Source of the DNA: Escherichia phage Pu-Krd-SF1
Sequence record: PQ249395
DNA length: 64,000 bases
Reading direction: 5' to 3' (one strand)
Part shown: piece after piece, positions 11,724 to 12,481 of the stretch
How positions within the stretch are numbered: the stretch's first letter is position 1
Layout of the letters: each line of letters begins with the position of its first letter
Notes under the pieces: generated by a model
Seen by the model: the letters and a program-made list of their open reading frames with translations, nothing else
What the model was told of the DNA's origin: nothing
The model's database searches: none
Position numbers and translations under genes: made by a program

Positions 11724-11944
11724 TGGCAAAGATAATTATTGAAGGTTCTGAAGATGTGTTAAATGCTTTTGCCGAGTGGTTTAGTAATTCAGGCGAACAG
11801 CAATTTAATGAAGCGTGGAATATGGGTGATATTGATGGAATTTATCCTACGACAGAAATTTCTGTTCAGGGATATGGCATTCATGAACCTATTCGTTTAG
11901 TTGAATATGATTTATGTACTGGCGAGGAAGTCAAATATGATTGA
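11723..11944 (+). CDS. hypothetical protein
   Basis: 73-aa ORF, translationally coupled. Confidence 0.5.
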   Translation: MAKIIIEGSEDVLNAFAEWFSNSGEQQFNEAWNMGDIDGIYPTTEISVQGYGIHEPIRLVEYDLCTGEEVKYD

Positions 11945-12203
11945 AGATATTAAGGGGTATAAGCCACATACTGAAGAGAAAATCGGTAAAGTAAATGCTA
12001 TCAAAGATGCTGAAGTTCGTTTAGGACTTATCTTTGATGCTTTATATGATGAATTCTGGGAAGCACTAGATAATTGTGAAGACTGTGAATTCGCGAAGAA
12101 TTATGCTGAAAGTCTTGATCAGTTAACTATTGCTAAAACGAAACTCAAAGAAGCCAGTATGTGGGCTTGTCGTGCTGTGTTCCAACCAGAGGAAAAATAT
12201 TAA
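11937..12203 (+). CDS. hypothetical protein
   Basis: 88-aa ORF overlapping neighbours at both ends. Confidence 0.5.
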
Positions 12204-12481
12204 TGGCCCAATTAAGCGCAGGGTTTGGTTATGAGTATTATACTGCCCCTCGTCGTGTATCTGTTGCTCCTAAGAAAATTCAAAGTCTTGATGATTTCCA
12301 GGAAGTAGTCCGTAAAGCTTTCCAGGACTATGCGCGTTATCTTAAAGAAGATTCACAGGATTGTCTCGAAGAAGATGAAATTGCTTACTATGAGCAACGT
12401 CTTGAACAGCTTAAAAACCTACATGAGGTTCGTGCAGAAGTTACAAAGTCTATGAATAAATTGATTAGATTTAAAGAATAA
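12203..12481 (+). CDS. hypothetical protein
   Basis: 92-aa ORF; TAATG overlap with the previous ORF. Confidence 0.5.

Follow-up and report, generated by a model that had tools for sequence, protein, structure and literature searches.

Acb2 (Jenson et al. 2023; Huiting et al. 2023; both summarised in PMC10449767) is an anti-CBASS protein whose hexamer holds three cGAMP molecules (ITC), and which acts as a sponge in vitro and blocks the activation of CBASS effectors. The T4 protein binds 3'3'-cGAMP with a KD of ~84 nM and fails to bind cA3, because its second pocket, formed by Y37, A57, L60, D61 and T64, is smaller; the second pocket of PaMx33 Acb2, in contrast, also takes cyclic trinucleotides (PMC10312549). 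Binding is lost or weakened in the mutants Y8A and F82C, and it is Acb2 that triggers the decoy defence Panoptes (PMC12657218).

A second T4 protein, Vs.3, was named TadIV-1 by Chen et al., Nat Commun 2026 (PMC13243611), the work to which PDB entry 9WIW traces. According to that study, T6 escapes type IV Thoeris by means of TadIV-1, and T4 becomes sensitive once the gene is deleted; in purified form, the protein binds N7-cADPR (KD ~216 nM) without degrading it. It forms a two-helix homodimer whose activity depends on a disordered loop at the N-terminus, and mutagenesis of the T4 protein shows a requirement for R17, R18 and K24; the binding mode is based on this mutagenesis and on co-folding models, with no ligand-bound structure. 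All long homologues tested (~90 aa) were active and the short ones (~70 aa) inactive. T2 is Thoeris-sensitive despite encoding a functional homologue (PMC13243611), and the presence of the gene is therefore no guarantee of the phenotype. Other phage sponges, namely Tad1, Tad2, Acb4, Sequestin and Lockin, are likewise small homo-oligomers that sequester immune nucleotides without degradation, but they have other folds, oligomeric states and ligands, and no sequence relationship to them was detected.

In this work, we analysed a window of 64,000 nucleotides from Escherichia phage Pu-Krd-SF1 (PQ249395), a T4-like Tequatrovirus, with a focus on two small genes upstream of regB. These almost certainly correspond to vs.4 (acb2) and vs.3 (tadIV-1), adjacent sponge genes on the same strand, each of which would neutralise a different nucleotide immune signal. 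The identity of the genes is taken from their sequences, and the mechanisms from papers on an identical Acb2 and on TadIV-1 proteins that are 97% and ~75% identical to the one encoded here.

Genomic setting of the locus

Over its first 25 kb, the window matches Escherichia phage Pu-Krd-SF6 (PQ759886) with 100% identity, and the 1.8 kb around vs.4 and vs.3 show 100% identity with Pu-Krd-SF5, -SF6 and -SF7 and ~96% identity with the T4 reference (1578/1642 aligned positions). On the plus strand, the genes follow the order denV, vs.8, vs.7, vs.6 (GrcA-like), vs.5, vs.4, vs.3, regB, vs.1, vs and tk.4 to tk, with two internal-protein genes between denV and vs.8; from vs.8 onward this is the order of T4, read along the direction of transcription, and the synteny from vs.6 through vs.5, vs.4, vs.3 and regB to vs.1 is common to the window, T4 and related viral contigs. 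The block is flanked by two readily recognised genes on the same strand: vs.6, encoding a GrcA-like glycyl-radical cofactor protein (11361-11723; Pfam PF01228, E = 2e-18; 115/120 residues identical to T4 Vs.6), and regB (12541-13002; Pfam PF10715, E = 1e-68).

Outside the block, the arrangement around denV is not that of T4: the gene is flanked on either side by small internal-protein-like genes (8969-9265, 9744-9929 and 10071-10373), whereas the T4 arrangement is ipIII-ipII-denV-vs.8. The vs.8 gene (10488-11027) encodes 179 aa in the window versus 219 aa in T4. A cluster of eight tRNA genes at 2896-4281 corresponds to the T4-type tRNA region, and a search of Rfam returned this cluster only, and no RNA family within the vs.4-vs.3 interval or close to it.

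Between vs.6 and regB lie three plus-strand ORFs, at 11723-11944 (73 aa), 11937-12203 (88 aa, starting with ATG) and 12203-12481 (92 aa, starting with ATG), matching the three sizes given in the first-pass annotation. That annotation had placed the T4 counterparts by counting back from regB, and the placement agrees with T4 itself, in which vs.4, vs.3 and regB follow one another at the same spacing as in the window. Longer versions of 100 and 106 aa, started by TTG or GTG, also appear in the mechanical list of ORFs; the T4 annotation uses the ATG starts for both genes, and the 88-aa product is the crystallised Vs.4 chain. A GAGGA Shine-Dalgarno sequence precedes every ATG of vs.5, vs.4 and vs.3. 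The genes are packed tightly, with stop-on-start overlaps that join vs.6 to vs.5 (TAATG), vs.5 to vs.4 (ATGATTGA) and vs.4 to vs.3 (TAATG). Because of these overlapping stop and start codons, we infer that vs.6, vs.5, vs.4 and vs.3 are probably co-expressed as a single translationally coupled unit.

Vs.4 as a predicted Acb2

The ORF at 11937-12203 (plus strand) is the putative acb2, encoding anti-CBASS protein 2, a predicted cyclic-dinucleotide sponge of 88 aa. The first-pass annotation had suggested an Acb2-type protein among two ORFs of about 90 aa in the position of vs.3 and vs.4, and had proposed aligning both to T4 Vs.4/Acb2. The suggestion held for this ORF and failed for its neighbour at 12203-12481, which is the counterpart of Vs.3/TadIV-1. 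At 11937-12203, the protein is identical in 88/88 residues both to the chain named Vs.4 in PDB 7UQ2 (E = 1.9e-57; one entry with six chains) and to T4 NP_049728, and it therefore shares every binding residue with T4 Acb2. It also passes the Pfam family PF24729 (Acb2_Tad1_hairpin) with 71.4 bits against a curated cut-off of 27 bits (E = 7e-20), covering positions 1-58 of the 58 in the profile; a search of NCBIfam found no model for either Vs.4 or Vs.3. The gene occupies the same position as in T4, two genes upstream of regB, and what sets this Pu-Krd-SF6-like phage apart from the T4 reference within vs.4 is restricted to eight synonymous nucleotide changes.

The residues of the cyclic-dinucleotide pocket, Y8, K23 and F82, are all present in the window protein, as are those that explain the absence of cA3 binding (Y37, A57, L60, D61, T64 and T68). 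The more distant Acb2 of Pseudomonas phage PaMx33 (p26; PDB 8H2J, 8IXZ and related entries) is a member of the same Pfam family and, although highly divergent from the window protein (phmmer E of about 0.03), aligns with it weakly but collinearly, such that the pocket tyrosine and lysine are conserved, with Y8 and K23 falling onto Y11 and K26. Across 39 full-length Vs.4 homologues drawn from related viral contigs, an N-terminal motif ending in VN.IK and a C-terminal motif are near-invariant and the middle of the protein varies freely; no variation occurs at G7, Y8, P10, H11, K15, V19, N20, I22, K23, M75, W76 and C78, and F82 is present in 38 of the 39. Given its identity with the crystallised protein, window Vs.4 would form a homohexamer that binds, and leaves uncleaved, three cyclic dinucleotides.

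Vs.3 as a predicted long-form TadIV-1

The adjacent ORF at 12203-12481, also on the plus strand, is the putative tadIV-1, encoding a predicted N7-cADPR sponge of 92 aa that would act against type IV Thoeris. Its product is identical to T4 Vs.3 in 89/92 residues (97%), belongs to PHROG 2037 (E = 6e-40) and has a sole significant match among solved structures, to UPEC07 TadIV-1 in PDB 9WIW, which extends over its full length (E = 5.9e-38). A literature search for vs.3 together with regB and phage T4 returned nothing, and the connection with TadIV-1 was made via that PDB code alone.

Long forms of TadIV-1 are defined as those of more than 80 aa with an N-terminal flexible loop. At 92 aa, the window protein is of this form and carries the complete N-terminal extension, a region that the ~70-aa homologues lack in the alignment. 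Residues 1-37 are the same in the window and in T4. The likeness to T4 TadIV-1 covers the length, the place of the gene directly upstream of regB, and the N-terminal loop, in which R17, R18 and K24 are kept; K25 is present as well. The two proteins differ by three substitutions in the helices (K38, E64 and T81 in the window for N, T and S in T4), none of them at a residue implicated in binding, and E64 agrees with the UPEC07 protein. The latter, which is the one crystallised, is ~75% identical to window Vs.3 over the helical core and differs from it by a nine-residue loop insertion that the window protein is missing. The exact window sequence is found in other phages too. Taken together, these features suggest that window Vs.3 is probably an N7-cADPR-binding homodimer that inhibits type IV Thoeris.

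Alternative readings of the two ORFs

Short ORFs are common in AT-rich DNA, and the mechanical list does contain overlapping frames here, so one may ask whether both ORFs are chance open frames or pseudogenes within a non-coding spacer. The pattern of change relative to T4 argues strongly against this, as it is heavily skewed to synonymous sites: vs.4 carries eight synonymous codon changes and no non-synonymous one, and vs.3 carries nine and three, respectively, and both genes are therefore under purifying selection as proteins. Moreover, vs.4 and vs.3 are both annotated genes of T4, the proteins have been purified, Vs.4 itself and the UPEC07 homologue of Vs.3 have been crystallised, and homologues occur at the same position in hundreds of phages. 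A spurious origin is thereby refuted, and we assign it a vanishingly small probability. That the Acb2 counterpart is instead 12203-12481, or that both ORFs are Acb2-type paralogues that arose by tandem duplication, is very improbable too. The two genes are adjacent and of similar size (88 and 92 aa), both proteins are predicted or known helical hairpins, and two-helix structures occur in both families (PMC13243611). Yet BLASTP finds no alignment between Vs.3 and Vs.4 at E ≤ 100, hhalign of the two family alignments gives a probability of 1.7%, and Pfam gives no Acb2 hit for the 92-aa ORF, whose only significant match to a solved structure is TadIV-1, which is structurally distinct from Acb2, a dimer versus a hexamer (PMC13243611). 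At the level of sequence, these comparisons (BLASTP, hhalign and Pfam) refute the assignment of 12203-12481 as Acb2 or as its paralogue, and remote paralogy among Vs.3, Vs.4 and Vs.5 was likewise negative by hhalign for all three pairs. Vs.3/TadIV-1 is a sponge family separate from Acb2.

A further reading accepts this family assignment and holds that the window variant of Vs.3 is inactive against type IV Thoeris, or acts on another target, as has been proposed for the short homologues of ~70 aa. The three substitutions relative to T4 would be compatible with it, as would the inactivity of the short forms and the sensitivity of T2 despite a functional homologue (PMC13243611). However, the window protein is a long form with the N-terminal loop of T4 and with R17, R18 and K24 kept, the substitutions are helical, one of them (E64) is shared with UPEC07, and every long homologue tested inhibited type IV Thoeris, including the far more divergent one from UPEC07 (PMC13243611). 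We hence regard a loss or change of activity as improbable, and an active Vs.3/TadIV-1 next to Vs.4/Acb2 as the preferred reading.

Predicted functions

In the mechanism that we propose, the Vs.4/Acb2 homohexamer would bind three cyclic dinucleotides (3'3'-cGAMP and related) at its dimer interfaces, so that the signal would be held, not degraded, and stay below the level needed to activate the CBASS effector. Like T4 Acb2, the window protein would be expected to bind cyclic dinucleotides and not the cyclic trinucleotide cA3, and should also allow the decoy system Panoptes to detect the phage. The two-helix homodimer of Vs.3/TadIV-1, in turn, would capture N7-cADPR through its flexible N-terminal loop (R17, R18 and K24), leaving the caspase-like effector of type IV Thoeris without activation. 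Both proteins have already been characterised biochemically and structurally, such that the locus adds little new biology; its practical value lies in the correct annotation of both genes and in phage selection.

Elsewhere in the window, a 151-aa ORF at 452-907 (plus strand) matches the structures 7T26 and 7T27, labelled Acb1 in the PDB, with E = 5.6e-62; it is the counterpart of gene 57B, whose enzyme breaks down cyclic oligonucleotides. Acb1, Acb2 and TadIV-1 are thus all encoded in the window, a combination that predicts evasion of cGAMP-type CBASS and of type IV Thoeris, and sensitivity to Panoptes. Such a predicted defence profile matters when the host range of therapeutic T-even phages is to be predicted. 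Three genes 3' of regB, tk.4 (13886-14365) encodes a protein of 159 aa with a Macro domain (PF01661, E = 1e-7). Such domains act on derivatives of ADP-ribose, and a link of tk.4 to ADP-ribose-based defence signalling is therefore conceivable.

Vs.5, a conserved neighbour

The first gene after vs.6 is vs.5 (11723-11944, plus strand), which overlaps the start of acb2 by 8 nt and encodes a conserved 73-aa protein assigned to PHROG 1986 (E = 1e-43), annotated as of unknown function. Searches with Vs.5 gave no significant match in Pfam (only a sub-threshold UvsW_N, E = 0.05) or the PDB (only a weak SurE, E = 0.009) and no match in NCBIfam, and a large protein search returned 11 relatives only, all of them close; on that shallow alignment, AlphaFold2 produced a low-confidence model (pLDDT 55, pTM 0.42).

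Of 987 phage records, 985 have Vs.5 at full length, among them a second record named phage T4 (OL964735). A single base, corresponding to position 11772 of the window, is missing from both the T4 reference (NC_000866) and a record of 1986 (X04567), which results in a frameshifted Vs.5 of 58 aa (4382-4558 in the T4 locus L001; 988-1164 in L003). Conserved throughout Tevenvirinae, devoid of any recognisable domain and joined to the acb2/tadIV-1 block by a stop-on-start overlap, Vs.5 could be put forward as a third anti-defence protein, making vs.5-vs.4-vs.3 a compact anti-signalling cassette, although we consider this a speculative and rather unlikely proposal. Screens in T4 may have missed Vs.5 through the frameshifted form in the T4 reference sequence.

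A hairpin before regB, and promoters

The block ends in a hairpin between vs.3 and regB (12483-12541, plus strand), with a predicted RNA folding energy of -23.4 kcal/mol and a z-score of -4.6; none of 200 shuffled sequences folds as well. In the T4 record X04567, the same element is annotated as a potential terminator under the name inverted repeat D/D'. The hairpin pairs the Shine-Dalgarno region of regB (GGAG), a motif that is also the one cleaved by RegB, and encloses a promoter-like site, TTTACT-17-TATAAT, at 12485-12513. With the Shine-Dalgarno paired and this site inside the hairpin, read-through transcripts would therefore mask regB translation, and transcripts starting inside the hairpin would leave it unmasked.

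A potential promoter annotated in T4 upstream of vs.7 is conserved in sequence in the window, which by itself is no sign of function. A scan of the region for consensus promoters gave 12 hits versus 13.8 in shuffles, hence no excess, and did not locate the promoter of the block. For the timing of vs gene expression, the source is the T4 literature only.

Distribution and annotation of vs.4 and vs.3

Homologues of Vs.4 are found in 1234 phage records and those of Vs.3 in 721. In a set of 46 related viral contigs, chosen by their match to vs.4, the gene lies directly upstream of regB in most, and full-length Vs.3 is confined to the T4-like group and three other contigs (L016, L021 and L042), being short or absent elsewhere; this distribution of long and short forms agrees with that in PMC13243611. 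Two of the contigs, L044 (about 1965-2282) and L048 (about 1995-2219), carry vs.4 alleles without the conserved C-terminus, including F82, in ORFs extracted by script. In one of these alleles the tail beyond W76 is frameshifted, the other ends at about residue 74, and they resemble the acb2 loss-of-function escapers that are selected by Panoptes.

Current labels do not reflect these relationships. Both vs.4 and vs.3 are still named 'hypothetical protein' in the records of Pu-Krd-SF5, -SF6 and -SF7, which are 100% identical here, and homologues of Vs.3/TadIV-1 are labelled 'Endoribonuclease' or 'Endoribonuclease RegB' in PDB 9WIW and in several genomes such as NC_042130 (slur04), OR757453 and OL615012, apparently a spill-over from the neighbouring regB.
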